NCBI RefSeq assembly: GCF_964355755.1
Contig: NC_092676.1
Location: forward strand, 17,998,871-18,062,870
Direction: 5' to 3'
Source of the DNA: Antedon mediterranea
Taxonomy: Eukaryota; Animalia; Echinodermata
Length of the DNA: 64,000 nt
Below the pieces are notes generated by a model. That model had not been told where the DNA came from. It saw only the letters and a list, made by a program, of their open reading frames with translations, and made no database searches. Made by a program: the position numbers and the translations under genes. This document shows positions 39,272 through 64,000 of the stretch, one piece after another (the first letter of the stretch is position 1; each line of letters opens with the position of its first letter).

Positions 39272-40749
39272 ACAATAGTATAAACTAACCAACCTAATTA
39301 TCTATTACTCTTCTATACTACTTATAACTAGCTCAAAACTCTAAAATATTCATTTAAAATCTGACGCTAGATCCACATGGGCGCAGCCATCTTGAATCTT
39401 TGTTTACAACTATAGCGCCACCAATCATAAAATAAATCTTAATCAACTACAGCATGACGCCCTCATCGGTCAAAAACTAGTTTACAAATCCACCATTTTA
39501 TCGATAAAACTCATGTTCCGTGAACATAATCCTCGCAACATAATAAATACTCATAATCCAATAATTAGACTCTTCCCTCAATAATATAATTACTTATAGG
39601 TCAATCACTGACACACAACTAGTCTGAGAAACAATATCTCCAATGTAATTATTAACTCAATTTGTACCACTCTATGACTGATTTGACAGCGAGGTACACT
39701 AGCTGATTCTGTTGGCACAAAGCGAACATTTCCAACATAACTCGGTTGCGAATAACATTCATTCGAGCCTAGCCTAAAGTTACTTAATATATCGTGCAAA
39801 CTACTTTTATCATCTACTGTAACCAACGTACCTTAGAACAAAATAATATCAATCTAAAATTTGAAATTTAACAGGTTTAATCAATCAGATGCATAAAGAT
39901 AAATAACGGATGTTATTAACCTCAATCTCAGTTATCGGCGCTCCAAAAACATCCCTCTCGCAGTCGCGGTAACAGCCTCATTACACCGAACCATCATCAA
40001 AAATTATTACTCCTATAATCGTTTTCTTAATTCTCACTATTGCATTCAAAGTTTGTAATGTAAAGTATAACAAAATTGTATTAATGTATAAATCGTAATT
40101 TAACAACCAAGCTCTAAAATTGAACATCGTCAAATAACACTTAATTTGATGAACTATATTATTACACTGTTCTAGTTAGTTTGAATGAATTCAGTCTACG
40201 ACATACATAATACATGTAGCAGTTAAAAACAAAGAGTGTATACAGGCCTACAAATGTGAACACATATTGTAAATATTACCTGACTAACATTCAAAAACCA
40301 AATTTGTTTTAACTGAAATATTTCAATTAAGACTGCTTAGCATCATCAAAAGCTCTGCAATCAAACACGCGCATGTACGTTGCACTTATTTAATAATTAC
40401 AGCAAACATAATAACAACAAAAAATATATATTAAAAGGTAGTGTATAACGGTTGCGATCCGAGTTGGTTCTAAACTGCCTCGGTCCAAAGTCAAGTTTAG
40501 GGGCGACTTAAACGGCTACCATATAAACTATAGTAAAATATTGCACTCATTAACATTTTTATCACACATGTTTTTTTACAAGAAATATTCAATTGTTCTG
40601 TATGTAAGTGATGGACAATACAATAAATAACAATATAGCCACATAATGCCTATATAGCTTCAATATACCGAGTATCACAAACATTACAATTAAGATATAC
40701 AATTTATTTTAACGAGTGCAAAAAATAGTAGGTACATTAATTATAAGTA

Positions 40750-41952
40750 CTAGATGGTACGCTCGCGTACCATCTAGGTCGTGCCCACAGATGGTTCTCG
40801 AATACACAGTAATTTCAGCGTTAAAAAACTGGCGATTTCAAATGTACAATAATGCAGGACAATAATACATGTCATTTACAGGAACGATTAAATAGACACG
40901 ATGATTTATGTACTCAACTAAAATTAGCACACTGGGAATTACTTCCGAAAGAGAAAGTTGTCACAAAATGAGACAAATTGTTTAAGTAAAATTTAAACAA
41001 ACTTAATTTGTGTTTTGTATGTAACATTATGGTTGAGAGATAGGGAAGAGGATGGGTGCAAAGAGGAACAATTTTTAAATATATTCTTTATTTTGTAACG
41101 AAATATTAATTAACATGTTTTACAAATAATATACCACTAAACACAGTAAAACATTGCGATGTAATACTTTGTTGAAACTATCACCGTCGTAGTCGATTGA
41201 AATAGTACAGTACATGTAACGATACACTACGACGTATGTTTATATATAATGTTAAACAATTTGTGAAAACCACCTCTATTCAGGTCAAATCATAAATTCG
41301 ATTTAATCGGTAATAAATATTAAATTACGGCGACTGAAAACGCTAGCTCATTATCCGTTTAAAAAAAATTATATCCAACCTCTGCAGCACAGATTGAAAA
41401 AAAAAATGGATCGAATTTCTGTTATGAGTATACAGTACTTTCCTTTACGACGTCTGAGGGAATAGACACTTGTGGAACGACACAGAGATTGGAATGTTCC
41501 ATTCATCACAAATCAATACATTTGTATAAACGTATATTAAATCTATCAAAATAGTATTTTTTAAAGAAAATCGGCCTGTCTTCAACATTATGATACTGTA
41601 CTCGAGCTGTTCAACCAGTTTTCAGCTATTAAAAACAATTATCGTAGGAGGAGATAGGAAAATGCGAAGCCTCCTCGTATTTTTGTGGCGGGTATTTTTC
41701 AAGATGGACATCCATTAGACAGTGTATACCACGATCGGAAAACACCCCTATCTGGGGCAAATCGTTGAACCTAAATTCGTTTTAATCGTCAATAACTAAT
41801 TATCTAACTTAATTTAATTAGTAAACCGGGTTACATCAGGTGGTTAAAATCAGTACCGAAAGTACGAACCAACTTTACATACCATCGACTAAAAATTCTA
41901 AAAGTAAGGCGCGATTTACCGAATTTTGCCCTTATGTAAATTTATATATAGA
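40750..41952 (-). mobile_element. Non-autonomous Helitron (same family as 10008 and 46286), reverse orientation
   Basis: Reverse complement starts TCTATATATAAATTTAC and ends with hairpin + CTAG. Confidence 0.88.
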
Positions 41953-42627
41953 AGTGAAAACAATAAAATAAATAACAATGATAGGTATTTGTAACAATCT
42001 ATATTTATAAATTTAAATCAAGATATAATCATTAAACGATAACAAGACAGTAGGTTAAATAGGTAAATTATGTAGAATTGATTTGAATACAAACATCACA
42101 AAATATGATTTTAACAATGCTTCAAGCGATGTTAAAATCATATTAAACAAATGTATTAATAAAGTAAATATTTTTTTTTTCAATATTTTTCTATTATAAT
42201 AAACATATTGACATTATAATTACAATCAAGAGCAACAGTAATATATTCTATATATACAGTGTAAAATAAATAATCTATAAATTATTAAATATTATATTCT
42301 ATATGTCAAATAATTAATCTATACATTTCTAAATTTAAGAATTGGATAACATAACATTTAAGAGTGAAAATGAATACATTGAAATGAATTCATTTACAGT
42401 ATAATCCTTCATAACATTGTCATAATATAAATATATATAAAATACATTAAATCTAATTATATGCATGGAACAACTGTGGTAATTAAAACAAATGTATTAA
42501 TTATTAAAGTGCAATAATAAGAATAACCAAACATTTGTTAAACTTTGGAATGAGTGCATTGGCACTCAATCTGTGAAAGTCAGTGCATCAAAACATCAAG
42601 ATATTTAAATACACATGATATATACTG

Positions 42628-42790: not shown

Positions 42791-43084
42791 TCCGAATTTC
42801 CTCACTGAGGACAAATATTAATACAAAATACAAAAAAAATACAAATATCACAACAAATTTACAATAAAATACAGCAACAATACCAAACAGCCACAAGAAT
42901 ACATTTCCTGAAAAGTACAACTCAACCCTAAAAGTTATATGCAGGTTGAAATAGTACTTTTGGCTGACTTTAACAATAAACAGATCAAATGCAAGGAACA
43001 ATGCAATTCTTAAACAGAATGCAGATAGAAAGTACAAGATACTATACAACTATAAATTTATAACCTCGATCCACTGACAAAGCC

Positions 43085-44069
43085 TTAACGGTTTGTTTTT
43101 TCGCTTGAACACGTATATATGATCGTGTACAGATACGGATTAACTGCTGAGTTGATCGGTAAAATGAAGGTTGCTGCCCAAACATATATTTCTGCAGGGA
43201 TATCCCAATGTTTAGTTTCCGAGCAAATTCCCATTAAAATTATGGGAAACCAGCAACAAAAATCTGTACCAATTATAAACACTAGCTTCCGTGCAATTCG
43301 CAACTGTTCTTCAAGGCTTTTCCTTCTATTAACAGTCGCTGATGATCTTTTCACAGAAAAAAATATTGTGAGATAACTAACGACCATGACCAAGAAACCA
43401 AAACCGTTAAACGCAATGAAGATAGCAGTGGCATACTCCCAGCCTGGTAAATGACTTCGAGTTAGCGGTAACGGAAGGCAGACACTCTGTTTACCATAGT
43501 AGTTCTCTCCAAAGTAAGGCAGGTCGATGAAGCTCAACCTGTTTGCAGCTACCGGTAAGAAACTGATAGCAGCAATAACAACCCAAGCAATGACGATGAC
43601 TATTTTGCATGTTTTACGACTGAGACGTCTAGTGTTAAAAGGACTAACAATGTTTACAGCCCGGTCGACGCTCATAACCATCAACGTAAACACCGAGCAT
43701 TCACTGGAAAGAGTAGAAATAGCACCTGCAAAACTGCAAGTGAAACTACTTTTCCAATATTCTAGAACTTCCGAGTATCTACCTCTATAGTGAATATCAG
43801 CCCCTGCAATAATTAGCAGATACATTGCCATAAGTAGATCAGAGATGGCAAGACTGGAGATCAGCATGGAATCAACAGTTTTATCTTTATTGCAACACCT
43901 TGATATGAGAACAAGTGCATTGCCAATAATGGAGGAAACACCAATTACGAGCATCAACACCCGAAGCGATTTCCTTTTTAGTAAATCTTGGCATGATGCG
44001 AAAGCATCAGTGGGTTCACAGATCTCAATGTCACCAACAACACAACACAAATGGAAAAAATCTGAATAG
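43085..44069 (-). CDS. Terminal exon: short hinge + rhodopsin-class 7TM domain (RXFP/GRL101-like LGR)
   Basis: ttcag acceptor; YSDFFHLCC...ASCQDLL hinge, GN (TM1), SLAISD (TM2), SVDR (TM3), CLPL (ECL2), TDFCCWFP (TM6), PINSAVNPYLY (TM7). Confidence 0.93.
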
Positions 44070-47000
44070 CTGAATGAAAAGAAATAGGATAGTTATATAT
44101 TCATTACTGATAATTGTAAAGTGTAAATAGCTAATTGCTAATTTCAAAAAGTGTAAATAGCTAATTTAAACAAATTTAATATTAGCAATTTTTTTCTTGC
44201 CAGCATGTATTTATTATATGGAATTCGTTTTTGATCTGGAATACAACTTTTCCCCTTTTCAGCAGTACAGTTGGGGTCAACATTTTCTATCATAACTCTT
44301 TATCATTACAGGCCTATTACATTATTTTACCGGCTTTTTCACTGAGATTGAGAATTTCACATGTATGAATTCTTTTGATAACTTGTTAACAACTTGTTAC
44401 ATTTGAAAATAAAGTGTATCTGTGAAATTTGTACTAAATGGCATTTAAATACAAAAATCAAAGGGGAACAACAGCTCCCATCACACCACCCTACATACAG
44501 CCATTTGCATTCATAATGTCAAATAAATTTACTTACAACTGTGTTAAATTTACCAACTCTTTAAAAGTCTTGTCTTCATAATCTTTCAAGTTGTTGTATG
44601 TTAGGTTTCTGTAGGATAATAAATTCAGAATGATCATATTCATTTAATAATAACTTTAAATTCACATGTCATGAGGAAACTTTCTGAATGATTGAAATCA
44701 AAACTGTACTGGGTTTGGTTTACTTAGCATTCCTGCTCCCAAAAGTCATCCATTCATAGAAGCACTGATGAAGAAAGTTTATCCATGGTGGCCATAGAAT
44801 GGTCCTGAAACATACTTTGGCTTTAGTTGATAGAAGTTTGAAACATTTTATTAGAAATAGAGTATATGTAAAGTTATAAACTTTGTGGCAATGACAATGT
44901 TTACAAAAAGCTGAATGTGCATTAGAGGCAAGAATACAAGCAGGTGTCTTACAATACAGATTATGAACTTACAGAATTAAAAGTGATGAAGCAAATGGAG
45001 AAAATGCACCATCCTCTATGTTAGTTATAGAGTTGTTCTGTAACTGACTGTTAACAAATTAACAACAAAAATTATGATCCTAAATATAGTTATTTCAGGA
45101 CTGAAGATGATCAACTGCAATTGCCTTTATTGGTATTTACTGCTCTGTCACAGTACTATTTTATTCAATGTAATCAACTAAAGTACATGTTTTAAAGATA
45201 CAGTATACTGTCCAATTTACTATTAATCTTTGTTAAATATGCCGTTCTAATGTCACATAATAGTAATCATCAGTCAACAAATTTAAAAATAAATAACAAT
45301 TATTACTATCAACTATGATTAATGAATTAAGAGTATAACACAATACGTACAAAACATACTTACAATATTTGCAAATTGTTCAATCCATCAAATATACCAG
45401 CTGGTAAATTACTAATTTGGTTATTATCCAAAAATCTGAAACAAAATGAACAACATTTAAAGTGAAGTTTGACTATTTTATATTTTACCCATGGTTTCAC
45501 TTTGTTATCTTTAGTTTATTTTAACATAATTTAATAAGCAAAAGTACATATAAGGGCACTATACTGTATTTCATTAGTGATACTATATCAATCATATTGA
45601 TTGAATTATTAGTGTCTATGATTCATGCACCTTTCTGACCGTTGATCATTCACTAGAGCACTGTTAATATGTCCATTAATACAACATCTGTATCATTTTT
45701 TTTAAAGCCAACACATTAAAAATATTTCATTTATGTAAAAATAATGTTTCAAATTTTTAGTTTTTGTTTAATAATAACCCAATAAGTACAAAACAAACTT
45801 ACAAGTCTTGCAAATTGTTCAATCCATCAAATATATCAGCTGGTAAATTTCGAATTTCATTACCATTTAACCATCTAAAAAAAATAAAAAGTTTAAAAGT
45901 GAAATTTGTCTATTTTATCACCCATGCTTTTACTAAATTTGTTTTCCTTCGTTTATTTTAACATACTTTTTAAGGCACATTTGTATGATAATTTATGTAT
46001 GATAATTTTGTTCAGTTCTTTTTGTTATTATATTAGGCCATCTGGAATGATTAATGTTTAAGTTAAATGCCTTCAGTTGATTATGTTGCTATTAACTATG
46101 ATTAATGAATTGTGAGTAATAATAATGCAATAAGTACAAAACATACTTACAATCTTTGCAAATTGTTCAATCCATGAAATATATCAGCTGGTAAATTACT
46201 AATTTCATTACCACTCAACAATCTGAAAAAAATTAAAAATTTACCACATTTAAAAGTGAAATTTGTCTATTTTATCACCCATGCTTCTATATATAAATTT
46301 ACGTAAGGGCAAAATTCGGTAAATCGCGCGTTATTTCTAGAATGTTTACTCGATGGTATATAAAGTTGGTTCGTACTTTCGGTACTGATTTTAACCACCT
46401 GATGTAACCCTGTTTACTAATTAAATTTAGTTCGATAATTAGTTATTGACGATTAAAACGAATTTAGGTTCAACGATTTGCCCCAAATTGGGGTGTTTTT
46501 CGATCGTAGTATACACTGTCTAATGGATGTCCATCTTGAAAAATACCCGCAGACGATAATACGAGGATGCTTCGCATTTTCCTATCTCCTCTTACGATAA
46601 TTGTTTTTAATGGCTGAAAACCGGTTGAACAGCTCGAGTACAGCATCATAATGTTGAAGACAGGCCGATTTTCTTTAAAAAATACTATTTTGATAGATTT
46701 AATATACGTTTATACAAATGTATTGATTTGCGATGAATGGAACATTCCAATCTCTGTTCCACAAGTGTCTATTCCCTCAGGTGTCGTAAAGGCAAGTCCT
46801 GTATACTCATAACAGAAATTCGATCCATTTTTTTTTCAATCTGTGCTGCAGAGGTTGGATATAAATTTTTTTTAAACGGATAATGAGCTAGCGTTTTCAC
46901 TTGCCATATATTATGTACAAATCGTTATTATTGCAGTTAAACCACGAACATTATCACCCTTCCCTCACTGGCATGAGTAGCGTTGTAAAACCAGTAGAGG

Positions 47001-50000
47001 ATAGGCCTAAGGTACATCACATGGCCTAAACGCAGAACAACGTTGGTGGGTAGGGTAGGAACCCCGGTAGGAACCAACTTAACTATGAATTGGCTCTAAG
47101 AAACAATTGAAAACCATTAGGCCTACTAATTAAGTTGAGTTGGATAATTTAATATTTATTGACGATTAAATCGAATTTATGATTTTCCCCGAATAGAGGT
47201 GGTTTTCACAAATTGTTTTACATTATATAAACATATACACGTCGTAGTGATGTATCGTTACATGTACTGTACTATTTCAATCCACTAGGACGGTGATAGT
47301 TTCAACAAAGTATTACATCGCAATGTTTTACTGTGTTTAGTGGTATATTATTTGTAAAACATGAAAACAATAATAATAATAATAACTGGTACTTGATATA
47401 GCGCATTATGCTGAAAGCCTCAATGCGCTTTACAAAGACAGAAAAATTTAGAAAATTACAAATTAAAAAGGTGGGTTTTGAGGAGAGATTTGAAGACACT
47501 GGTGGAAGTAGCCTGACGGATTTCAATAGGCAACGCATTCCATAGAGAAACGAATGCCGAAGAAAATGAACGATTTCCATAAAACTTAGTGGAAGGATGA
47601 AATATATGGGCAAGAAGAGACTCAGATCTAGATCTCAGAGACCGCTTAGGAACATAAGGTTGAATAAGTTCAATTAATATTTCGTTACTAATTGGATAAA
47701 GAATAAATTAAAAAATTGTTCCTCTTTGCACCCATCTTCTTCCCCATCCCTCAACCCGAATGTTACATACAAAACACAAATTAAGTTTGTTTAAATTTGA
47801 CTTAAACAATTGGTCTCATTTTGTGACAAGTTTCTTTTTCGGAAGTAATTCCCAGGGTGCTAATTTTAGTTGAGTACATAAATCACAGTGTCTATTTATT
47901 CGTTCCTGTAAACGACATGTATTATTGTCCTGCGGTACGTACATTTGAAATCGCCAGTTTTTTAACGCTGAAATTATTATGTATTGGAGAACCATCTGTG
48001 GGCACGACCTAGATGGTACGCGAGCGAAGCGAGCGTACCATCTAGTTTACTAAATTTGTTTTCCTTCGTTTATTTTAACATACTTTTTAAGGCAAATTTG
48101 TATGATAATTTATGTATGATAATTTTGTTCAGTTCTTTTTGTTATTATATTAGGCCATCTGGAATGATTAATGTTTAAGTTAAATGCCTTCAGTTGATTA
48201 TGTTGCTATAAACTTTGATTAATGAATTGTTAGTAATAATAATGCAATATGTACAAAACATACTTACAACCATAGCAAATTGTTCAATCCATGAAATATA
48301 TCAGCTGGTAAATCACTAATTTGGTTGTCATGCAAATGTCTGCAAAAACAAAAATAAACAACATTTAAAAGTGAAGTTTGACTACTTTATACTACCCATA
48401 GTTTCACTATTTTGTTTTCTTTAGTTTATTTTAACATAATTTTTTATCCAACTTTTAGAATTTATGTATGATTATTTTTGTTCAGTGAAAACTTGTAACA
48501 TTGAAAGCTGAAACAGAATTCAGATCTTACAAAAAGAGCACTGTGAATATGTCTATTAAATACAACAATTTGTTTCATTTTGGTTAAAATCAACATATCA
48601 AATATATTTGATTTATATGAAAATAATGTTGAAAAATTAATGTTTTTGTTTAATTTGATTAACTTAAATTAATCATTTCACAATTATTTTACAAATGTTA
48701 TAATAAATTCCAATTATGCTATTCATCATCATCATGAACACTGAACGTCATGTTACATAGTGCACTTAAAATTTCTCCAATCAGAGAGATTATTGGCCAA
48801 AGTGTACATAGACTTATTTGTTCTATAATTTTTATCCATGTGGTTTTAGGTCGTGTCTTGACTTTTCTAATTGATTCAGATAGAGTTCATTGCACTGGGA
48901 TATCGTAGTCTAGATGAAGAAAGTGTCCACACCATGTCAAGCGTCTTCTCTTTATAACTCTGTTCCATTTTTCTTCATTTGTGCTGTTATATAAATCTAT
49001 ATTTGTTATTATATTAGACCATCTGGAATGATTAATGTTTAAGTTAAATGCCTTCAGTTGATTATGTTGCTATTAACTATGATTAATGAATTGTGAGTAA
49101 TAATAATGCAATATGTACAAAACATACTTACAAGTATTGCAAATTGTTCAATCCATGAAATATATCAGCTGGTAAATTACTAATTTGGTTATTATCCAAC
49201 CATCTGCAAAAACAAAAAACATTTAAAAGTGAAGTTTGACTACTTTATACTACCCATAGTTTCACTATTTTGTTTCTTTAGTTTATTTTAACATACTTTT
49301 GTATCCAACTTTTAAAATTTATGTATGATCTTGTTTATAAAAGAAAGTTGAAGAATTAATGTTTTTATTTAATATGATTAACTTAAATTAATCATTTCAT
49401 AATTATTTTACAAATGTTATAATAAATTGCAATTATTGCTATTCATCATCATCACAAACACTGAACGTCATGTGACATAGTGCACTTAAGATTTCTTCAA
49501 TCAGAGAGATTATTGGCCAAAGTGTACATAGACTTATTTGTTCTATAATTTTTATCCATGTGGTTTTAGGTCGTGTCTTGACTTTTCTCATTGATTCAGA
49601 TAGAGTTCATTGCGCTGGGATATCAGAGTCTAGACTAAGAAAGTGTCCACACCATGTCAAGCGTCTTCTCTTTATAACTCTGTTCCATTTTTCCTCATTT
49701 GTGCTGTTATATAAATCTATATTTGTTATTATATTAGACCATCTGGAATAATTAATGTTAAGTTAAATGCCTTCAGTTGATTATGTTGCTATCAACTATG
49801 ATTAATGAATTGTGAGTAATAATAATGCAATATGTACAAAACATACTTACAACCATAGCAAATTGTTCAATCCATCAAATATATCAGCTGGTAAATTACT
49901 AAATTGGTTGTCACTCAAAACTCTGCAAAAATAAAAAATGAACAACATTTAAAAGTGAAGTTTGTCTACTTTATATGCTACCCATGGTTTCACTATTTTG

Positions 50001-53000
50001 TTTTCGTAAGTATATTTTAACATAATTTTTTATCCAACTTTTGGAATTTATGTATAATTATTTTGTTCAGGGAACTTAACATTGCAAGTTGAAACAGAAT
50101 TCATATCTTATAAAAGAGAGCACTGTGAATATGTCCATTAAATACAATAATTTGTTTCATTGTGGTTAAAATCAACACATCAAAAATATTTGATTTATAT
50201 GAAAATAATGTTGAAAAATTAATGTTTTTTGTTTAATATGATTAACTTAAATTAATCATTTCAAAATAATTTTACAAATGTTATAATAAATTGCAATTAT
50301 TGCTATTTATCATCATCATCATCACGTACCCTGAACGTCATGTGACATAGTGCACTTTTAAGTCTTAAAAGACTTCTCCAATCAGAGAGATTATTAGCCA
50401 AAGTGTACAAAGACTTATTTATTTTTTCTTTTTGCATCATTTTCTATAATTTTTATCCATGTGGTTTTAGGTTGTTCTCTTCTGTCATTGATTCAGATAG
50501 AGCTCCTTGTGCTGGGATATCATAGTCTAGACAAAGAAGGTGTCCACACCATGTCAAGCGTCTTCTCTTTATAACTCTGTTCCATTTTTCCACATGTGTG
50601 CTGTTATATAAATCTATATTTGTTATTATATTAGACCATCTGGAATAATTAATGTTTAAGATAAATGCCTTCAGTTGATTATGTTGCTATCAACTATGAT
50701 TAATGAATTGTGAGCAATAATAATGCAATATGTACAAAACATACTTACAATTCTAGCAAATTGTTCAATCCATGAAATATATCAGCTGGTAAATCACTAA
50801 TTTGGTTGTCATGCAAATATCTGCAAAAACAAAAATAAACAACATTTAAAAGTGAAGTTTGACTACTTTATACTACCCATAGTTTCACTATTTTATATTC
50901 TTTAGTTTATTTTAACATAATTTTTTATCCAACTTTTAGAATTTATGTATGATTATTTTTGTTCAGTGAAAACTTGTAACATTGAAAGCTGAAACAGAAT
51001 TCAGATCTTACAAAAAGAGCACTGTGAATATGTCTATTAAATACAACAATTTGTTTCATTTTGGTTAAAATCAACATATCAAATATATTTGATTTATATG
51101 AAAATAATGTTGAAAAATTAATGTTTTTGTTTAATTTGATTAACTTAAATTAATCATTTCACAATTATTTTACAAATGTTATAATAAATTGCAATTATTG
51201 CTATTCATCATCATCACAAACACTGAACGTCATGTGACATAGTGCACTTAAGATTTCTTCAATCAGAGAGATTATTGGCCAAAGTGTACATAGACTTATT
51301 TGTTCTATAATTTTTATCCATGTGGTTTTAGGTCGTGTCTTGACTTTTCTAATTGATTCAGATAGAGTTCATTGCGCTGGGATATCGTAGTCTAGATGAA
51401 GAAAGTGTCCACACCATGTCAAGCGTCTTCTCTTTATAACTCTGTTCCATTTTTCTTCATTTGTGCTGTTATATAAATCTATATTTGTTATTATATTAGA
51501 CCATCTGGAATGATTAATGTTTAAGTTAAATGCCTTCAGTTGATTATGTTGCTATTAACTATGATTAATGAATTGTGAGTAATAATAATGCAATATGTAC
51601 AAAACATACTTACAAGTATTGCAAATTGTTCAATCCATGAAATATATCAGCTGGTAAATTACTAATTTGGTTATTATCCAACCATCTGCAAAAACAAAAA
51701 ACATTTAAAAGTGAAGTTTGACTACTTTATACTACCCATAGTTTCACTATTTTGTTTCTTTAGTTTATTTTAACATACTTTTGTATCCAACTTTTAAAAT
51801 TTATGTATGATCTTGTTTATAAAAGAAAGTTGAAGAATTAATGTTTTTATTTAATATGATTAACTTAAATTAATCATTTCATAATTATTTTACAAATGTT
51901 ATAATAAATTGCAATTATTGCTATTCATCATCATCACAAACACTGAACGTCATGTGACATAGTGCACTTAAGATTTCTTCAATCAGAGAGATTATTGGCC
52001 AAAGTGTACATAGACTTATTTGTTCTATAATTTTTATCCATGTGGTTTTAGGTCGTGTCTTGACTTTTCTCATTGATTCAGATAGAGTTCATTGCGCTGG
52101 GATATCAGAGTCTAGACTAAGAAAGTGTCCACACCATGTCAAGCGTCTTCTCTTTATAACTCTGTTCCATTTTTCCTCATTTGTGCTGTTATATAAATCT
52201 ATATTTGTTATTATATTAGACCATCTGGAATAATTAATGTTTAAGTTAAATGCCTTCAGTTGATTATGTTGCTATCAACTATGATTAATGAATTGTGAGT
52301 AATAATAATGCAATATGTACAAAACATACTTACAACCATAGCAAATTGTTCAATCCATCAAATATATCAGCTGGTAAATTACTAAATTGGTTGTCACCCA
52401 AAACTCTGCAAAAATAAAAAATGAACAACATTTAAAAGTGAAGTTTGTCTACTTTATATGCTACCCATGGTTTCACTATTTTGTTTTCGTAAGTATATTT
52501 TAACATAATTTTTTATCCAACTTTTGGAATTTATGTATAATTATTTTGTTCAGGGAACTTAACATTGCAAGTTGAAACAGAATTCATATCTTATAAAAGA
52601 GAGCACTGTGAATATGTCCATTAAATACAATAATTTGTTTCATTGTGGTTAAAATCAACACATCAAAAATATTTGATTTATATGAAAATAATGTTGAAAA
52701 ATTAATGTTTTTTGTTTAATATGATTAACTTAAATTAATCATTTCAAAATAATTTTACAAATGTTATAATAAATTGCAATTATTGCTATTTATCATCATC
52801 ATCATCACGTACACTGAACGTCATGTGACATAGTGCACTTTTAAGTCTTAAAAGACTTCTCCAATCAGAGAGATTATTAGCCAAAGTGTACATAGACTTA
52901 TTTATTTTTTCTTTTTGCATCATTTTCTATAATTTTTATCCATGTGGTTTTAGGTTGTTCTCTTCTGTCATTGATTCAGATAGAGCTCCTTGTGCTGGGA

Positions 53001-56000
53001 TATCATAGTCTAGACAAAGAAGGTGTCCACACCATGTCAAGCGTCTTCTCTTTATAACTCTGTTCCATTTTTCCACATGTGTGCTGTTATATAAATCTAT
53101 ATTTGTTATTATATTAGACCATCTGGAATAATTAATGTTTAAGATAAATGCCTTCAGTTGATTATGTTGCTATCAACTATGATTAATGAATTGTGAGTAA
53201 TAATAATGCAATATGTACAAAACATACTTACAATTCTAGCAAATTGTTCAATCCATGAAATATATCAGCTGGTAAATTACTAATTTGGTTGCCCCACAAA
53301 GATCTGCAAAAATAAAAAATGAACAACATTTAAAAGTGAAGTTTGTCTACTTTATATGCTACCCATGGTTTCACTATTTTGTTTTCTTTAGTTTATTTTA
53401 ACATAATTTTGTATCCAGAAAGTATATAAAAAGTTGAAAAATTAATGTTTTTATTTAATATGATTAACTTAAATTAATCATTTCAAAACAATTTTACAAA
53501 TGTTATAATAAATTGCAATTATTGCTATTTATCATCATCATCACGTACACTGAACGTCATGTGACATAGTGCGCTTTTAAGTCTTAAAAGACTTCTCCAA
53601 TCAGAGAGATTATTAGCCGAAGTGTACATAGACTTATTTATTTTTTCTTTTTGCATCATTTTCTATAATTTTTATCCATGTGGTTCTAGGTTGTTCTCTT
53701 CTGTCATTGATTCAGATAGAGTTCATTGTGCTGGGATATCATAGTCTAGACAAAGAAGGTGTCCACACCATGTCTAGCGTCTTCTCTTTATAACTCTGTT
53801 CCATTTTTCCTCATTTGTGCTGTTATATAAATCTATATTTGTTATTATATTAGGCCATCTGGAATAATTAATGTTTAAGTTAAATGCCTTCAGTTGATTA
53901 TGTTGCTATTAACTATGATTAATGAATTGTGAGTAATAATAATGCAATAAGTACAAAACATACCGTATTTTCCGGAGTATAGGTCGACCCCAAGTATAAG
54001 TCGACCCCCAACTTTGACCTAGAATATCGTTGATTTTGGTATGACCTGAATATAAGTCGACCCCCAAAATCGGCTAATAACACAACTTACTTTAAAGTTC
54101 AAAGAAGGCTAGAAATGTATGAAATGTGGTTGTTTGTTATACAATTATTAAAGTGTAGGCCTAATCAATATCGGACGGACGTAATCACAACGGCTTCGCC
54201 GCCGTCTTCGCCAGCCTATAATAAATGACAGCGATGTAGCGTTACAGTACTTGCCATCAGCGATGTTTTTTCGCGTCACTCGAATAAATTAAAACGAGTT
54301 TTTCGTTAGGAGGCTTATTAAATTGTACAGGCGAGTAGTTGTAAATCGCGTTATCTGTAAATGTACACGCGCCGGACTGAGGAGAATTTATTTATGAATA
54401 GACATGCGCAGTAATTGTAATTACGAACAAACAAACAAACTGCGCATGTGTATAGATGAAAATATCGCGCAATAACAAACATGCTGCATGGACATTCCAA
54501 CATCGTGTAGTTCGTTTGTGGTGTGTGTTACGATGTTTTCGCGTGTGAATACGAAGCATATGAAACACAAACGAAAACTATTTATTCTTAATTATTTTAA
54601 TAAAAGCGTAATATAAACATCAACATTAATCTGTGTTATATATTAATAGTACTTGTACCACCAGTACTTGTTGGAGTTGTATTATTTTGTACAATGTAGG
54701 TATTATTAAATTGAAAACTCCTGTGAGTGATTGATGATAGGCCACTGACCTTGCTAGGCCTTGACAGCTGACGGCTTTTGAACGAATTTTTTCGGCTTGA
54801 TTTTTTTCAAAAATCGCATGGTCGGAGTATAAGTCGACCCCCCGATTTTGCAATTAAAATTTTCCCACAAAGTCTCGACCTATACTCCGGAAAATACGGT
54901 ACTTACAATCCTTGCAAATTGTTCAATCCATCAAAAACACCAGCTGGTAAATTACTAATTTGGTTGTCATGCAAATATCTGTAAAAACAAAAAATGAACT
55001 GTATATTTAAAAGTGATGTCTGTCTAGTTTATGTTACCCATGGTTTCACTATTTTGTTTTTTTTTTAGTTTAACATAATTTTTATGCCAAACTTTTATGA
55101 TAATTTATGTATGATCTTGTTCAGTGAAAACTTTTAACATTGCAAGTTGAAATAGAATTCATACCTTACAAAAGAGAGCACTGTGAATATGTCAATTAAA
55201 TACAACAATCTGTCTCATTTTGGTTAAAATCAACACATTAAATTTTTGATTTATGAAAATAATGTTGCAAATTTAATTTTTTTGTAATATGATTAATATT
55301 ACTTACATAGACGATTCACAATTATTTTGTAAATGTTACAATAAATTTCAATTATTATTTTCAACTATGATTAATGAATTGTTAGTAATAATAATACAAT
55401 ATGTACAAAACATACTTACAATCTTTGCAAATTGTTCAATCCATGAAATATATCAGCTGGTAAATTACTAATTTGGTTGTTATCCAACCATCTGAAACAA
55501 AAATAAACAACATTTAAAAGTCAAGTGTGTCTACTTTATATGCTACCCATGGTTTCACGATTTTGTTTTCTTTAGTTTATTTTAACATCATTTTTTATCC
55601 AACTTTTAGAATTTATGTATGATTATTTTGTTCAGTGAAAACTTGTAACATTGAAAGCTGAAACAGAATTCATATCTTACAAAAAGAGCACTGTTACAAC
55701 CGCTAATGTAGAAAACGCCAGCTAATGTCGAAACAACCGTTAATGTAGAACAATCCACCGCTTATGTAGTAAAACCTCCAGCTAATGTAGAAATACCAAC
55801 AGCTTATGTAGTAAATAAAAATCAACACCAGCTAAAGTAGAAACAGTCAACAGCTTATGTAGTAACGAAAATTGCCTCCCAGCTTATGTAGTTACTATCG
55901 CCAGCTAATGTAGAAAATGTTATATATTTTACAAAAATGTCTAATTCATGTGCAAATGCATCGATCTTTACTTAGCTATCAGTCTTTCCACCTCTCGTAA

Positions 56001-59000
56001 GCAACCAACTTTCTAAAATGACCACACATCGTAATAAGCTACCATCTCTGTTAAGGGACCGCTTCTCATAATCGACCACGTCTCGTAAGGGATCACCTCC
56101 TCTCGTAAGGGACCGCTTCTCATAATCGACCACCTTTCGTAAGCGACCACACCTCTCGTAAACGACCACCTCTTTTAAGGGACCACGACCTCTTTCTCCC
56201 TATTAACGGACCGCTTCTCATAATCGACTATCTCCCGTAACAACGACCTCTGGTAAGTGACCACCTCTATTGAACGTCCACCGTTTCTATTAAGGGACCG
56301 CTTCTTATAATCGACCGCCTCTCGTAAGTGATCACCGCCTCTCATAAGGAACCGCTTTTCATAATCGACCACCTCTCGTAAGCGACCACCTCTTTTAACG
56401 ACCACACCTCTCGTAAGTGACCACTTCTTTTAAGGGACCACGACCTCTTTATCTCTATTAAATATTCAATGATGAGAAGCGGTCCCTTAACAGAGACAGT
56501 GGTCGTTCAATAGAGGTGGTCACTTTCGAGAGGTCATTGTGATGGGAGATGGTCGATTATGAGAAGCAGTCCCTTAATAGAGGTGGTGGTCCTTTAAAGT
56601 AGGTCGTCACTTACGAGAGGTGGGGTCGTTAAGAGAGGTGGTCCTTTAAAAGAGTCGTCACTGACGATTATGAGAAGCGGTCCTTTAATAGAGAGAAAGA
56701 GGTCGTGGTCCCATAAAAGAGGTGGTCACTTATGAGAGGTGTGGTCCTTAAGAAAGGTGGTCGTTTACGAGAGGTGGTCGATTATGGGAAGTGGTCCCTT
56801 ATGAGAGGAGGTGATCCCTTACGAGACGTGGTCGATTATGAGAAGCGGTCCCTTAACAGAGATGGTTGCTTACGATGTGTGGTCGTTTTAGAAAGTTGGT
56901 TGCTTACGAGAGGTGGAAAGACTGATAGCTAAGTAAAGATCGATGCATTTGCACATGATTTAGACATTTTTGTAAAATATATAACATTTTCTACATTAGC
57001 TGGCGATAGTAACAACATAAGCTGGGAGGCAATTTTCGTTACTACATAAGCTGTTGACTGTTTCTACATTAGCTGGTGTTGATTTTTATTTACTACATAA
57101 GCTGTTGGTATTTCTACATTAGCTGGAGGTTTTACTACATAAGCGGTGGATTGTTCTACATTAACGGTTGTTTCGACATTAGCTGGCGTTTTCTACATTA
57201 GCGGTTGTAACAAGCACTGTGATTATGTCCATTAAATACAACAATCTGTCTCATTTTGGTTAGTAACCAACGACTTAAATATATTTGATTTATATGAAAA
57301 TAATGTTGAAAAATTAATGTTTTTATTTAATATGATTAACTTAAATTATTCATTTCACAATTATTTTACAAATGTTATAATAAATTGCAATTATTGCTAT
57401 TTATCATCATCATCACGTACACTGAACGTCATGTGACATAGTGCACTTTTAAGTCTTAAAAGACTTCTCCAATCAGAGAGATTATTGGCCAAAGTGTGCA
57501 TGGAATAATTTATTTTTTCTTTTCTATCATTTTTATCCATGTGGTTCTAGGTTGTTCTCTTCTGTCATTGATTCTGATAGAACTCCTTGTGCTGGGATAT
57601 CAGAGTCTAGACAAAGAAGGTGTCCACACCATGTCTAGCGTCTTCTCTTTATAACTCTGTTCCATTTTTCCTCATTTGTGCTGTTATATAAATCTATATT
57701 TGTTATTATATTAGGCCATCTGGAATGATTAATGTTTAAGTTAAATGCCTTCAGTTGATTATGTTGCTATCAACTTTGATTAATGAATTGTGAGTAGTAA
57801 TTTTTTTTTTTTCTTTTCTTTTCTTTATTAAAAACAAACCAATTGGCAGCAAATCTGCTGAATTGCATGGTAAGGGACAATATACATTCAAAAGACAAGT
57901 AAAGTAATAGTCATCATTAAACAAAATTATCACAATTACAAAATATATGTAAATTTAAACATAAAGTATAAAAAATATAGTCATATTGCAAGGATATAGT
58001 ATACATTATTACTTAATTACAGTATAAAAATATAATCTTAAATTTAAGTTGCAGTATTTACTTTGATTTCTTAATTAAGGTTTACATCAGTCGACTTCAG
58101 ACAATTAAATAATTACAATTATACATTTACAAAAACATTAAATTCAAAATTAAATGAGAATTAAAAATAAATTGAGTCAAATTCAAGAAATTTCTACTAG
58201 GCCTATATGTCAAATTGATTAATATTTGGTTACATTATACATTTATTTTCTTTTATTATTTAATCAATACTGTTGAGGCAGCGAGTGAGAAACGGGATTG
58301 CACTGTTTCCATATCTATTTGTCTTATTTTTGGGGACCTGGTATGTATTACTTTTCCGTAAGGCCATATTATGCGTACTCATATTTCTCGGAAACCACTC
58401 AGCATATCTATACGCATTAGCACATTTCTTTGCAAATTCAATGCATAGTTGGTAACGTCTCTCAGTCATAGTATGGAGTCCCAACTGCTTCAGTGACTCC
58501 GTGTATGATACGTAATCCGCACCAACGATAATGCGGCATGCTCTCTTTTGGATTCGCTCCAATTGGCAGGTCTGTTCCTTGGTTATACTGCTATGCCAAA
58601 CCGGGACAGCGTACTCACTTATTGGGCGAACATAACACGTATACACGGAGATCAAATCTTCAGTCGGGACACCAAACCGTTTGAGACGTGATAGCATGTA
58701 TAGTCGTCGACTACTTTTACTAATAATATCGTTAAGGTGGGACTGCCAGCCAAGATTGGACTGGACAGTCAGGCCCAGAAGCCTGGTCTCAGACACCGCC
58801 TCAAGCTCCACCCCAGCGATTTGAAGGTGAGGAGGGTTAGGCGGTTCCTTCATAAAACAAACCTGCATAACCTTGCACTTACTGGGGTTGAGCTCGAGAC
58901 GGTTGTCCGTTGCCCAAGCATCCAGATCCTGAACATCCACTCCAATCTGGCTGGGTTGATTTGCGGGACGAACTTCTACAAGGCTGAGGTCATCAACATA

Positions 59001-62000
59001 CTTAAAGCTTTTAGCCAGAGACTCCTCAGAGGCATTATTGATAACAACCATGAAGATTATGGGGCCTAGCTTGGTGCCTTGTGGGACTCCACAAGAAAGC
59101 GTCTCCCACCGTGACAAGGCAGACTGGTATTGCACTCGTTGGCGACGAGATGTAAGGAAGTTTGTTATCCATGGCAGTAACTCGCTTCTGACACCAAGCT
59201 CGAAGAGTCTCTGAATAGCTAAAGTATGATCGATACAGTCAAACGCCTTGGAGAAGTCCGTCACAATAAGGGTGCCAACATTCTTACCCTTGTCTGTACC
59301 TTTAAAAAACAAATCAAGTATTTCAATAAGACAATGGGCAGTGGATGATCCTTTTATGCCACCATATTGGTTACGATCAATTTCTTTACCTATATCTTCC
59401 ATAACCCAGTTGGAAACAAATCCTTCGCAAGAATCGATGTCAAAGATATTGGTCTTAATTTAGAGATTGAGGCAGGGGTAGTCTTTGGGATAGGGGAAAT
59501 TGTGGCATCCTTCCACATTTTAGGAACAATTCCCTCTTTTAGAGATGAGTTAAATAAGTCACAAATGGGAACAGTGTCGATTCGACGGGCCTGACATGGA
59601 GAAATTGAATTGAAAATTACGGAACAATATTCAAGGTGAGGACGTATAATAGATTTGTATAAAGATAAAAGTGCCCTGCCGTCGTTCATAAACCTACAAT
59701 TTCTCCATATTAAGCCCATCATTCTATTAGCTTTTGACAACACATGATTAATATGTGAACAAAAATTTAATTTACTATCAATAAAAATACCTAAATCTTT
59801 CCATACATAAACCATCTCAAGATCATGTCCATTCAAATTATAATTGAAGAGCACAGGCCTTTTTTTAAGTGTTATAGATAAATATTTGCATTTATTAGCA
59901 TTCAGTTTTATCCCCCACTTCTCCGTCCATTCCACGAGACCATCCAGATCCTCCTGAAGTGAAAAAGCATCCTGTGGAGTGGTAATCACTTTGAACAATT
60001 TCAGATCGTCAGCAAATGAAAGAGACTCGGAATGATAAAATTTTAAAGGAAGATCGTTGATAAATAAATTAAACAAAAGCGGGCCCAGGATCGAGCCCTG
60101 CGGAACGCCCGATAACACAGGGAGCCAATCAGATGTCTCTCCCCCAATGACAACACGCTGTTGTCTATTAGTTAAATAGCTTTTAAACCAACTTAAAAGT
60201 GAACCGGATAAACCAAATTTTGAAAGTTTAAAAATAAGCAAATCATGGGAAACGGAATCAAAAGCCTTAGAGAAATCAGTGTAAATCACATCGCACTGCT
60301 TCTTGCTGTTAATTGCATCGTATGATGTAGCAAGAAGCAGTGCGAGGTTGGTTTGACATGATCTCCCAGAGACAAAACCATGCTGCCTAGGACTTAAAGC
60401 ATTAGCAACATGTGATGACAAACCATCATGCACAATGCGCTCAAAAATCTTAGACATAGTAAGCAATAACGAAATAGGACGATAGTTACAGATTAGTTTT
60501 TTGGGACCACTCTTGTGAATTGGGACAATATTAGCGTGTTTCCAAGATGAAGGAAAAACCCCAGAACTGTTGGCATTTATAGCTTCTGCTATTGCTTTGT
60601 TATCATCCGGTTGGACCCCTGGGACAGTAATAAGGGCTCGCTGTTGGCATTTGTTTGTTATTAGTTGAATACCTTTGTGCCAGCCAGACGGGTCACTTGA
60701 CTTAAGATTTTGAATGCAATCTCTGTAATGGAATTTCTTTGCCTGATCTATGAGTCGTATAACTTTGTTGCGCAAGAAACGCCAGAGAAACATCTTTTTC
60801 TCGGCAAAAGCAATCTGTCGTTTTCTAATTAAGTCTTTTTCTCAGTAGAGATCCATGGTTTGTCCTGAGAATGATGTTTAATTAATTTAGTAGGGAAGTG
60901 ATTGTCAATTGCATCCTGAACGGTAGTGTAAAATGCATCAGCCTTATCAGATGTAGAGGATGCATCAAGAACTTCATACCAAGGATGATTGGTTATCCAT
61001 CTTCCAAACTCATAAATACAATGTTTACGTAATGGCCTAACTAATCGTTTAATTTGTTTACCCGTTTTACTACAACCGATTGGTGGCAGGTAGATGGTAT
61101 TATGATCGCTTCTTCCAATCGGAGAGCATACAATAGGCTTCTTATAATAGTTCTTTAAATTAGTAATTACCAAATCTAATATGGCATCACCCCGAGTAGG
61201 CTGGTCTATAATCTGCTTCAACGAGTGAGCTCTACACGTACGTACGTAGGACGTACTCGAAGCCATATGCATTCCAATTCATCTGGGACAATGATGTTAT
61301 TTAATGTACTTACAGGTAGGCTGTCCTTGACATAAACGGCCACTCCACCCCACGCTTTCCACTTCTCTTTGTAGTAAAAACATTAAACCCGCTTACTGCT
61401 ATATAGTCATTATCAACCTTATCTGATTGCCAGGTTTCGGTAATAACAGCGATATCGGTGGTACTGACATCAGTTTGTTTCAATAATATTTCAAGTTTTT
61501 CGGGTTTTTTCAATAAAGATCGGGCATTAGTAAGGAACACACCTGGAAGAAACTTAGCAGTGAATTTTGCTGTTAATTGTGCAGGTAAAACGTATGCGAG
61601 TACAGGCGGTGGGCGAATATGACAGATGGATGGAACTGCTGGTCTGTTTCTAAAAATTACCTGTATCGGGCGTTTGATTTTCCGACCACCCCGTCTACCT
61701 CTACGAAATGCGGTTTTAAGTATACCAAGATCATCAAGCTTGTGCTTTATACTAGATGAAAGTTTAGCACCCTTAAGTGCAAGTGACTTCAACGTCTTAG
61801 CATTGTATACATACCGCGTTCGAGTGTAGGGCAGCTTCACAAGTGTAGAAAACAATAGTCTCATACATTCAGCTATGTACCACCTGTTGATTGCGTTCGC
61901 TACGTACCACCACTGGTGTAGAGCGTTGGGCCTAGGCAATTCTGTATCACTCATGTTGATAAATTTGTTACAAAAATCGTGCAAATGTCTACAGGTCTTG

Positions 62001-62243
62001 TCGAAAATCAGTAATAATAAACTGCATTCATAATACATACGGTCACGGAAAAATATCACTTGGAATTCAACAAAAACTGAACAAAATAACAAGACAAGAA
62101 AAGTGTGACTGCTACCAAGCGCCACCAGATACCACAATACTGTATGTACAAAACATACTTACAAGTATTGCAAATTGTTCAATCCATGAAATATAGCAGC
62201 TGGTAAATTACTAATTTGATTTCTCAAAATATCATATATGTTA
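43085..62243 (-). CDS. LRR-GPCR paralogue B (partial, spliced): at least 15 LRR exons + hinge/7TM exon; LGR type-C / GRL101-like receptor
   Basis: All exons phase 2-2 and splice in frame into the terminal 7TM exon; N-terminal exons expected right of the window. Confidence 0.85.
44537..44608 (-). CDS. 72-nt unique last LRR exon, NLTYNNLKDYEDKTFKELVNLTQ
   Basis: ctacag acceptor, gtaagt donor, phase 2-2. Confidence 0.85.
44973..45047 (-). CDS. 75-nt unique LRR exon, QLQNNSITNIEDGAFSPFASSLLIL
   Basis: aacag acceptor, gtaagt donor, phase 2-2. Confidence 0.82.
45364..45435 (-). CDS. 72-nt LRR exon, FLDNNQISNLPAGIFDGLNNLQIL
   Basis: ttcag acceptor, gtaagt donor, phase 2-2. Confidence 0.88.
45803..45874 (-). 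CDS. 72-nt LRR exon, WLNGNEIRNLPADIFDGLNNLQDL
   Basis: tttag acceptor, gtaagt donor; counterpart of the 1157 exon. Confidence 0.88.
46151..46222 (-). CDS. 72-nt LRR exon, LLSGNEISNLPADIFHGLNNLQRL
   Basis: ttcag acceptor, gtaagt donor, phase 2-2. Confidence 0.88.
46286..48045 (+). mobile_element. Non-autonomous Helitron in an array-B intron
   Basis: TC start, GATGGTACGC...GCGTACCATC hairpin, CTAG end; splits intron motif catgct|tttact. Confidence 0.88.
47367..47672 (-). mobile_element. L2/CR1-type LINE 3' end nested in the Helitron
   Basis: Minus strand TGTAAAGCGCATTGAG...AATGCGCTATATCAAG...(TTA)n tail; absent from the other Helitron copies. Confidence 0.65.
48268..48339 (-). CDS. 72-nt LRR exon, HLHDNQISDLPADIFHGLNNLLWL
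   Basis: tgcag acceptor, gtaagt donor, phase 2-2. Confidence 0.88.
49132..49203 (-). CDS. 72-nt LRR exon, WLDNNQISNLPADIFHGLNNLQYL
   Basis: tgcag acceptor, gtaagt donor, phase 2-2. Confidence 0.88.
49851..49922 (-). CDS. 72-nt LRR exon, VLSDNQFSNLPADIFDGLNNLLWL
   Basis: tgcag acceptor, gtaagt donor, phase 2-2. Confidence 0.88.
50749..50820 (-). CDS. 72-nt LRR exon, YLHDNQISDLPADIFHGLNNLLEL
   Basis: tgcag acceptor, gtaagt donor, phase 2-2. Confidence 0.88.
51614..51685 (-). CDS. 72-nt LRR exon, WLDNNQISNLPADIFHGLNNLQYL
   Basis: tgcag acceptor, gtaagt donor, phase 2-2. Confidence 0.88.
52334..52405 (-). CDS. 72-nt LRR exon, VLGDNQFSNLPADIFDGLNNLLWL
   Basis: tgcag acceptor, gtaagt donor, phase 2-2. 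Confidence 0.88.
53232..53303 (-). CDS. 72-nt LRR exon, SLWGNQISNLPADIFHGLNNLLEL
   Basis: tgcag acceptor, gtaagt donor, phase 2-2. Confidence 0.88.
53963..54899. mobile_element. Tc1/mariner-superfamily MITE
   Basis: 25-bp perfect TIR CCGTATTTTCCGGAGTATAGGTCGA, TA TSD, subterminal TATAAGTCGACCCC repeats. Confidence 0.88.
54907..54978 (-). CDS. 72-nt LRR exon, YLHDNQISNLPAGVFDGLNNLQGL
   Basis: tacag acceptor; gtaagta donor preserved next to the MITE. Confidence 0.85.
55420..55491 (-). CDS. 72-nt LRR exon, WLDNNQISNLPADIFHGLNNLQRL
   Basis: ttcag acceptor, gtaagt donor, phase 2-2. Confidence 0.88.
55692..57212. mobile_element. Foldback-type non-autonomous DNA transposon (TGT...ACA ends, 5-bp TSD)
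   Basis: TSD AGCAC (55687-55691 / 57213-57217); >400-bp near-perfect inverted arms built of GCTAATGTAG and GACCACCTCTC subrepeats; whole element roughly palindromic about ~56460. Confidence 0.85.
57801..62135 (-). mobile_element. CR1/L2-group LINE, copy B (same insertion as 9891-15715, duplicated with the gene)
   Basis: Identical junctions; open RT ORF 58260-59402; same foreign RT insert at ~59576-60571; lacks the Helitron. Confidence 0.9.
62163..62243 (-). CDS. 81-nt LRR exon, NIYDILRNQISNLPAAIFHGLNNLQYL (copy B)
   Basis: Identical to 15743-15823; acceptor inferred. Confidence 0.65.
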
Positions 62244-63696
62244 CTATAACTCGTGTTCTGCACGGTCTTTTTCTGCCTTAATATGTGGTTTTATACTTTG
62301 CATGGACAAGTATAATAACAACGCACTTTAATAAAAGTACTTTGACAAATTATTAAAATGAAAACAAATTGTATCACGAATAAAATTCGGAACTAACTGT
62401 ATTTACGGCCATTGGTTTGTTATACACTATCCCTTCACTTTAAAATATATGTAGCTGTGCTGTGTAAATTAGATGATGCTGTGTAAATTAGATGATGCGC
62501 GCAAACACACAACGAAAGTATTAAAATGCCAAACTATATCATTAATATGTATTATGTATATGTATATGTATATAATATGTATTAATTATTTGATATGTAG
62601 AGATAAAAAAAAAGTGGACAAAAATCAAATGAAAAACACATTGCTGCACAAACACGAATTGTTAAGTTTATTGGGCAGACATCTCGGTCCTAACGGGACA
62701 CAGGAAGATAGCCTACAGTTATTCCTGCAAGCTTACTCAATAAAACTCAGCTATCGGGATTTCACTCGAAAAATGTCTTATCAAATCTCCCTATGTAATT
62801 TTATAATACAATTCCCCACAATATATTCTGATTCTTTATGGCGTATATTTAATTTGATCTTTATTAATTTGCAGTATAATTCCTATTATTTAACTACTGT
62901 ACCTTCACACACGTGTGGTATGTTTTAAAATAAACAAAAAACTGAAATGGCTATGATTAATGGCCAATTTTTTTTTCTTCTTCCAAAGGGACACTGTATT
63001 GATTGATGGAAAGTGCCTGTTTCCAGTCACCTTTAGGGTCAAATCTATTATTTTAACGGCTCCCTTGTGTATAAAAGAGAGAAAATATTTGAAACTAAGG
63101 TGAACTTATCTTAAACCCGGAAATTACTTTGACCGGGAAGAATTGAAATTGAGAGGAAAATCCAATGTTGAAATCATAAATGTTGTTAAAAAACTCTTTA
63201 TAATATCTTCCTAAGATATAAATATGGAACAATAGCGTCGGCGTGCACACTAATGTTATCAAATCTACGTTTCGCGGTACATCTCGGATAGATAAGGTAG
63301 GTATCCAAGGCGGAGATTTGTACCAAAGTTTTTGCATTGTGCTCGCCTACGTCAGAATTAACCATAATTTATATATAGATAATAACGATTTACACACGTG
63401 GGCTTACGCTTTTTTTGCTTACATAAAAAAAAAATGTTAGCCTAGCGTTGCATGCTCCAAGCATGGAGGTCTATTTGTTACATCCAGTGATTTGTAAAAG
63501 TCGGAGGCTGGATGGCAATCTATAGTGTTATCGCAGTTCAAGAATTGATTCTCCATGGAGAGGGAACCAACATGATGGCGGCTACAATCGACCAATCAGA
63601 TATGCCCTACGCAGTACGCACTACGCCTGTGTTAGTTTAGTTTAGTTTAGTTATAATGGGAAAGTTTAGGCGAGTGCCTTTTTAACCCCATATCAA

Positions 63697-63916
63697 CTAC
63701 ATTGTGTCGATGCGATTCTTGAAGGTGTTAGTGGTCTCAGAATTAACAACGTCAGCTGGTAAACTGTTCCAATGGTTTATTACTCGTTGCGAGAAGGTAT
63801 GTCTTCTACAGTTCAATCCTTTATGGAAAATAGGCTTGAAAAATCTCAGGTGATGTCCTCGAGTAATTCTGCTAATATTACTTCTCATCTGGAAAAAGTC
63901 ATCCTTGAGCCTATCT
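63697..63916 (-). mobile_element. CR1-type LINE 3' fragment (duplicate of 17241)
   Basis: Identical translation TRGH...WNSLP. Confidence 0.75.
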
Positions 63917-64000
63917 GCATGAGAACGATGCGCAACGCGCGTTAAGCACATGAACGCGAACGCATTCTATATGATCCTCGTCAAAGGTCAAAATTAGGAG

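Follow-up and report, generated by a model that had tools for sequence, protein, structure and literature searches.

The stretch of DNA analysed here (the window) comprises 64,000 nucleotides (nt) of contig NC_092676.1 from the crinoid Antedon mediterranea (forward-strand positions 17,998,871 to 18,062,870). Its minus strand carries a gene for a leucine-rich repeat (LRR) receptor with the seven-transmembrane (7TM) domain of class A G protein-coupled receptors (GPCRs), referred to as gene B, and a second tandem copy, copy A, at 1-22600. In both, LRRs are encoded by an array of similar 72-nt exons, which an earlier note, made from the sequence alone, had described as a satellite-like chain of hypervariable cassettes; the feature is real and mostly as first described. 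Exon order differs between the two copies, and amino-acid change is in excess at codons 23, 1, 3 and 4. The array is probably reshuffled in the germ line, with selection diversifying a predicted binding face of the spliced receptor for a changing outside ligand.

Receptor exons and their splicing

The hinge, 7TM domain and short tail of gene B lie in one exon that matches the rhodopsin-type Pfam family 7tm_1 (PF00001, E 1.9e-31). By sequence, the closest solved relative of this exon is RXFP1 (E 1e-46), and the best solved relatives overall are RXFP1, FSHR, LHCGR and TSHR; an AlphaFold model of an Antedon relative, P0113, matches TSHR, FSHR and LGR4. Four sequencing runs (X1, X5, X6 and X8) were aligned to positions 43000-46300 of the window. 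In X5, a contig of 1453 nt (contig 9) presents the joints 44069|44537 and 44608|44973, with canonical ends and a shorter side of 72 nt, and extends past a 75-nt LRR exon into an array exon. Three shorter X5 contigs hold joints between array exons, with sides of 25-27 nt, and array-to-array joints at the group of exons with older intron types (45364-46222) are supported by the same run. None of these joints is present in X1, X6 or X8 over this interval. The array leads into the 75-nt LRR exon, a divergent 72-nt LRR exon and finally the 7TM exon, all in frame. The earlier note's in-frame splicing onto the 7TM exon is thus borne out by the X5 joints, with the correction that these two LRR exons intervene. 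The succession of LRRs, cysteine hinge and 7TM domain across the X5 joints is that of the LRR-containing GPCRs (LGRs), and the assignment to this class stands on the PF00001 match, the cysteine hinge, the LRR joints and the RXFP1-type relatives. With 16 differences from gene B across the 7TM exon and 3' flank, the X5 contig represents an allele or paralog, so that splicing of the array onto the 7TM domain is seen in a close relative of gene B, in what is probably an RNA run. The X5 joints also carry the exon starts Y.DN and Y.QD, which are absent among the complete array exons of the window.

The array was found by a scan of the minus strand of the window for units of 72 nt between AG and GT. 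It comprises 23 complete exons, all with AG/GT ends, one common phase and no stop codon, of which 20 are distinct at the DNA level and 18 at the protein level; beyond these, the window edge truncates one array exon, and in two copies the acceptor is missing. The count of about 24 amplified exons given earlier comes close to these 23, which are, however, pooled over two tandem copies, with 12 in gene B (45364-55491) and 11 in copy A. Likewise, the region 43085-62243, to which the array had been assigned, holds only the 12 complete exons and one acceptor-less copy, the other 11 and two incomplete ones belonging to copy A. All 13 exon starts and nine exon ends listed at that time are present in the window. 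Among the young exons of gene B, a recent duplication of three exons has a period of 2.48 kb and an identity of 98.5%. The acceptor-less exon of gene B is likely skipped in splicing.

It seems very improbable that the array is a library of cassettes for alternative splicing or somatic rearrangement that would give many receptors per animal, as in variable lymphocyte receptors (VLRs) or Dscam. The common phase makes any array exon skippable, brown-algal ROCO arrays are alternatively spliced (PMC11378527), and X5 contig 9 joins an exon ending in QR to the 75-nt exon, where gene B has the QI exon. Nevertheless, this contig differs from gene B in its 7TM exon, and another allele or paralog explains the joint equally well; moreover, the germline gene is complete, its splice sites are ordinary and nothing in it suggests rearrangement signals.

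Variation and turnover of the array exons

In the register LxxLxLxxN, the exon junction falls inside the second leucine, which leaves codons 22 and 23 of an exon and codons 1, 3 and 4 of its successor as the exposed positions. The strands of LRR proteins line their concave binding face. The structure model proposed in the earlier note was approximated by aligning the AlphaFold model of P0113 (mean pLDDT 82), a relative and not the window protein, to the array; in this model the repeat strands span codon 23, the junction leucine and codon 1, and the variable positions form, or directly follow, these strands. Compared with one another, the exons have an amino-acid identity of 0.25 at the five concave codons, 0.83 at the nine other non-core codons and 0.95 in the core. 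The five codons, which were defined beforehand, hold 24 extra amino-acid states, a number reached by 0.03% of 33,649 five-codon sets, and their 115 residues include 33 of the types W, Y, F and H and 22 acidic ones (D or E). The leucines interleaved between them never change. Counted as minimum steps without a tree, the concave codons require 26 non-synonymous and 5 synonymous changes, the other 18 codons 10 and 7, and the nine other non-core codons among these 7 amino-acid-changing and 1 silent. Single-base steps make up 25 of the 28 links between concave-codon alleles, and the multi-nucleotide substitutions reported before are mostly an effect of reading exons in pairs. Outside the five codons, the copy A exon at 7269-7340 (A.SF-Y) has a tyrosine in place of the conserved LRR asparagine, which may distort that repeat. 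Codon 16, on a non-concave side, presents a D/H dimorphism (13:10 over all array exons) that is common to both copies, and its rate is raised on the intron tree only.

The comparison with introns was restricted to the 17 of 23 units with homologous flanks, because non-homologous insertions inflate intron divergence (the units at 54907, 45803, 1157, 55420, 45364 and 46151 were excluded). In these units, positions 1 and 2 of the concave codons have a nucleotide diversity (pi) of 0.52 and 1.9 minimum changes per column, compared with 0.061 and 0.27 in 191 intron columns, a rate ratio of 7.1 (p 9e-10). Framework third positions, with a pi of 0.02, are flatter than the introns, in agreement with the near-invariance at synonymous sites noticed earlier. 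Deeper intron sequence, which could be aligned by BLAST in 102 of 253 pairs, gives 0.49 for concave codons against 0.058 for introns, with the concave value higher in 94 of the 102; gene B alone gives 0.51 against 0.061 (19 pairs). A codon model tied to the intron rate was run on two trees, and places the concave non-synonymous rate at 8.4 times the intron rate on the all-sites tree (likelihood-ratio statistic 70) and at 21 times on the intron tree. Codons 1 (9.5-fold), 3 (12-fold), 4 (5.8-fold) and 23 (20-fold) stand out on both trees. Since recombination is evident, the tree-based numbers are inflated, and the tree-free ones carry the argument. The excess of amino-acid change on the concave face known from ROCO genes is therefore also found here, and the earlier placement of the variation on this face, several-fold above the intron rate, is confirmed. 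The per-codon dN/dS check suggested with it gave a divided result, with codons 1, 3, 4 and 23 far above the intron rate and a borderline ratio within codons; the strong signal is that of the concave codons against introns and framework, not that of dN/dS within codons. Neither of the two outcomes named in advance as fatal, a lack of spliced transcripts and variability spread evenly over exons and introns, was encountered.

An explanation without positive selection, in which the exposed codons are unconstrained and the mechanics of mutation or conversion near exon ends raise their divergence, appears improbable and is already largely refuted. It would account for the position of the variable codons at both exon ends and for the raised synonymous change there, and the absence of stops in the exons is by itself weak evidence against it (chance 0.18). 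Relaxed constraint, though, is unable to exceed the intron rate seven- to eightfold, and splice sites, interleaved leucine codons and the intron bases that flank the variable codons are all conserved. In addition, the stretch of 15 intron columns that varies most has 14 changes, compared with 25, and the 23 exons contain only 4 CpG.

With regard to the turnover of the array, one exon start pairs with differing ends and one end with differing starts, and most region pairs show four-gamete incompatibility. Exon order differs between copies A and B, which are about 1% apart, and three gene B exons are identical to copy A exons with their order changed, in a comparison of two copies only that are possibly alleles. 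Two hallmarks of ROCO-type arrays are thus present, namely one same-phase 72-nt exon per LRR (23 of 23) and the exchange or reordering of exons between loci. Among the beta-strands that span junctions, 10 of 10 are distinct in copy A and 10 of 11 in gene B; as each strand straddles a junction, exon reordering or a crossover in the core makes new strands in frame. In the proposed mechanism, unequal crossover and gene conversion in the germ line would expand, homogenise and reorder the units, and selection would retain new residues on the predicted binding face. The ligand would be variable and external, protein-sized and non-self or environmental (microbial, parasite, conspecific or a chemical cue), and its signal would pass through the hinge and 7TM domain as in other LGRs.

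Several observations weigh against this account of a germline-shuffled array under diversifying selection. X5 is taken as RNA by a guess that rests only on its spliced joints, it comes from one study and some of its contigs are unspliced; its 16 differences from gene B and the short sides of the three array joints, merely 25-27 nt, count here as well. Copies A and B could be alleles assembled in tandem, and runs aligned to 15650-20200 gave no joint among the 5' exons of copy A, a result that is uninformative on these exons. On the side of the tests, codon 22 stands out on the intron tree and is not significant on the all-sites tree, synonymous change inside concave codons is also raised, three- to fivefold over the intron rate with 3.2 times as one estimate, the ratio of non-synonymous to synonymous change within codons is borderline (p 0.065 and 0.008 on the two trees), pairwise pN/pS at concave codons is 0.53/0.43, and recombination violates the tree models. 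Silent changes linked to old variants that were shielded from homogenisation would fit selection and at the same time weaken a classical dN/dS.

Coordinates, 5' exons and surrounding repeats

The two copies are offset by about 46.4 kb, and 11591-17544 is 98.7-99.8% identical to 57912-64000, in a shared block that includes a long interspersed nuclear element (LINE) and the acceptor-less exon. The 7TM exon of copy A would lie outside the window. Conversely, its predicted 5' exons (EGF, LRR cap and first LRR) likely mirror the 5' end of gene B beyond the window, judging by sequence. Ahead of the EGF exon lies a hydrophobic stretch that may encode a signal peptide or simply reflect a polypyrimidine tract, and an 18-nt micro-exon near 18870 was rejected, as it gives a stop in the required phase.

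Table 1. Features of the window, in window coordinates; array exons are labelled by their start and end residues where given.
Feature	Position	Strand	Remarks
Copy A array	1-9094	-	11 complete exons and one edge-cut (1-46)
Copy A complete array exons (starts)	708, 1157, 1517, 3832, 4727, 5469, 6210, 6933, 7269, 8128, 9023	-	72 nt each
Copy A acceptor-less array exon copy	15743-15801	-	adjoins high-copy repeat DNA from 15802
Copy A predicted first LRR exon	18514-18585	-	72 nt, array phase
Copy A predicted cysteine-rich LRR N-cap exon	21604-21748	-	phases fit
Copy A predicted EGF exon	22473-22586	-	Pfam EGF_2 E 4e-5, above cut-off; phases fit
Gene B hinge, 7TM and short tail	43085-44069	-	single exon, open to stop
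Gene B last LRR exon	44537-44608	-	72 nt, divergent; spliced on both sides in X5 contig 9
Gene B 75-nt LRR exon	44973-45047	-	shared in kind with Antedon paralogs
Gene B, three array exons with older intron types	45364-46222	-	AG-72 nt-GT scan
Gene B array exon F.DN/QI	45364-45435	-	
Gene B array exon W.NG/QD	45803-45874	-	
Gene B array exon L.SG/QR	46151-46222	-	
Gene B, seven young array exons	48268-53303	-	span of group
Gene B young exons	48268-48339, 49132-49203, 49851-49922, 50749-50820, 51614-51685, 52334-52405, 53232-53303	-	
Terminal-inverted-repeat element	53963-54899	.	between TA dinucleotides, 7 nt behind splice donor
Gene B array exon Y.HD/QG	54907-54978	-	one of the two most 5' intact exons
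Gene B array exon W.DN/QR	55420-55491	-	one of the two most 5' intact exons
Inverted-repeat (foldback-like) insertion	55692-57212	.	in array intron, outside blocks shared with copy A
LINE-type retroelement remains	57800-62140	-	in intron, present in both copies
Gene B acceptor-less array exon copy	62163-62221	-	normal acceptor lost

The terminal-inverted-repeat element, putatively mariner-like, left the adjacent splice donor intact. The LINE has a counterpart in copy A (12982-14430) with a match to RVT_1. An element of about 460-630 bp occurs three times (10008-10471, 41489-41954 and 46284-46912), two of them within array introns, and a satellite with a 67-bp unit (17.5 copies; 20273-21443 and 19786-19948) lies in a predicted intron of copy A. 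Between the gene copies there are a satellite with a 55-bp unit (30 copies, 31817-33466), a plus-strand reverse-transcriptase-like LINE fragment labelled by inspection (29244-30215) and a Ty3/gypsy-like long terminal repeat retroelement (33466-40203, minus strand) with zinc knuckle, PNMA-like and protease matches. The terminal repeat pieces of the latter (522 and 932 nt, one broken by an insertion) are 100% identical, and the element is therefore very recent.

Family placement and comparison with known systems

The best matches of the 7TM exon are Anneissia and Antedon proteins named GRL101-like. A quick tree of 58 rows, tentative in its deep nodes, used 57 of 229 fetched proteins, with P0029 excluded. 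In this tree, which realises the LGR phylogeny suggested in the earlier note, the 7TM domain of the window groups with 10 Antedon proteins from 7 contigs (SH-aLRT 100), within a crinoid clade of 18 rows (SH-aLRT 100) that includes four LDLa-bearing receptors; this places the 7TM domain in the GRL101 lineage. Neither a tblastn search with LDLa-bearing relatives nor a motif search detected LDLa in the window, beyond which the 5' end of gene B lies, and neither the motif nor PF00057 occurs in any of the 10 Antedon clade members, many of whose models are 5'-incomplete. Because the multiple N-terminal LDLa repeats typical of GRL101 were not found, the label GRL101-like, as judged from sequence, holds for the 7TM lineage only. 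The receptor does not qualify as RXFP (type C1) either, as no LDLa was found and given the separate clade formed by insect relaxin-type receptors.

Among 82 7TM-type relatives with at least 4 regular repeats, P0004 and P0007, Antedon proteins of the same clade, are alone in combining a homogenised framework with a variable concave face. Their framework homogeneity is 0.60-0.64, compared with a median of 0.15, and each has its own consensus, which indicates separate amplification per lineage. The annotated C-terminus of P0007 is fused to LINE-derived sequence that resembles the LINE of the window, probably a gene-model artefact. Dozens of long LRR-7TM proteins (P0013-P0107), which have as many as about 30 LRRs and lack LDLa, were also noticed; six of them were placed in the tree and fall among brittle-star and sea-star proteins, which suggests further echinoderm expansions of the lineage, with older repeats.

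Another reading, unlikely on balance, is that selection is real and the ligand endogenous or conspecific, with a usable surface rebuilt after one exon type had swept the array, or paralogs tuned to insulin-like peptides, pheromones or gamete signals. The nearest characterised relatives of the 7TM exon bind peptide hormones, an insulin-like growth factor (IGF) was proposed as GRL101 ligand by Veenstra (PMC8286064), expression of GRL101-like genes is elevated in the sensory tentacles of starfish (PMC6267866), and a snail GRL101-like gene is reported to be tentacle-specific (PMC13403566). Yet exon orders differ in copies about 1% apart and another individual or paralog adds further variants, unlike a convergence on one solution. 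Furthermore, three insulin-related peptides are each encoded by a single gene in crinoids (PMC8286064), against at least 10 clade receptors in Antedon, and the LDLa repeats, proposed binders of the IGF tail, were not found.

The established picture of LGRs is that of conserved hormone receptors; GRL101, an orphan among them, has been described as a single-copy gene in echinoderms. A young, spliced LRR array with rapid turnover and a probably selected binding face would mean that this lineage is open to re-use in variable recognition, here in the echinoderm class that has been studied least. Tentatively, crinoids may have turned a hormone-receptor lineage into a variable recognition family of LDLa-less LGRs on many chromosomes, whose exons would be reordered in the germ line and possibly through splicing as well. 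If so, each gene and allele would offer a new binding surface wired straight to G-protein signalling, making the family the class A GPCR equivalent of VLRs and plant R genes. A concrete family, with its sites and alleles, is now in hand to test what invertebrate GRL101-like expansions recognise.

Among the known systems, the vertebrate RXFP1/2 and glycoprotein-hormone receptors likewise join an LRR ectodomain, a hinge and a 7TM domain, and their genes have introns inside each LRR strand. Their repeats are old and divergent and their face serves a fixed hormone, the opposite of the uniform framework and variable face seen here. Lamprey VLRs are made of 24-residue LRR modules that vary on the concave face. 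Their cassettes are inserted somatically into an incomplete gene, and the receptors lack a 7TM domain; concave variation is common to both systems, whereas the gene of the window is complete in the germ line and carries a 7TM domain. The octopus expansion of adhesion GPCRs (group 3) is also a lineage-specific LRR GPCR expansion with signs of positive selection, but belongs to class B/adhesion and, in the available part of PMC6408891, comes without selected sites, the window receptor being class A. GRL101 and other type C2 LGRs have the 7TM domain and short cysteine hinge of the lineage in common with gene B (PMC8286064 and PMC4079206, as far as available). They differ in their LDLa repeats, in place of which an EGF exon and an LRR cap are predicted here, in the number of LRRs (six in Lymnaea GRL101, in the text available, and about 15 here) and in the one ortholog per ambulacrarian species found by Veenstra (PMC8286064, in part), against a multi-gene family in Antedon. 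In the literature searched, which covers few subscription papers, neither this crinoid expansion nor any LGR with a hypervariable array of LRR exons was found described; a Biomphalaria paper (PMC13619432) lists GRL101 solely in its expression tables, and no LRR-GPCR expansion was found in the passages available of the placozoan immunity paper PMC6321704. What is new here is a known diversification pattern in a receptor class for which no earlier report was found. As a mechanism, the shuffling of LRR exons combined with selection has precedents in brown algae and in other LRR receptors. The closest published case is that of the LRR-ROCO genes of Ectocarpus and other brown algae, which likewise encode each 24-residue LRR in a 72-nt exon of its own and have in common the shuffling of exons, positive selection at concave-face residues and a proposed role in recognition (PMC3341825, where lamprey VLRs are mentioned, and PMC11378527). 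ROCO proteins are cytoplasmic ROC-COR GTPases of an alga, whereas the array of the window splices onto the 7TM domain of an animal cell-surface class A GPCR, and is very young, homogenised down to silent sites and introns.

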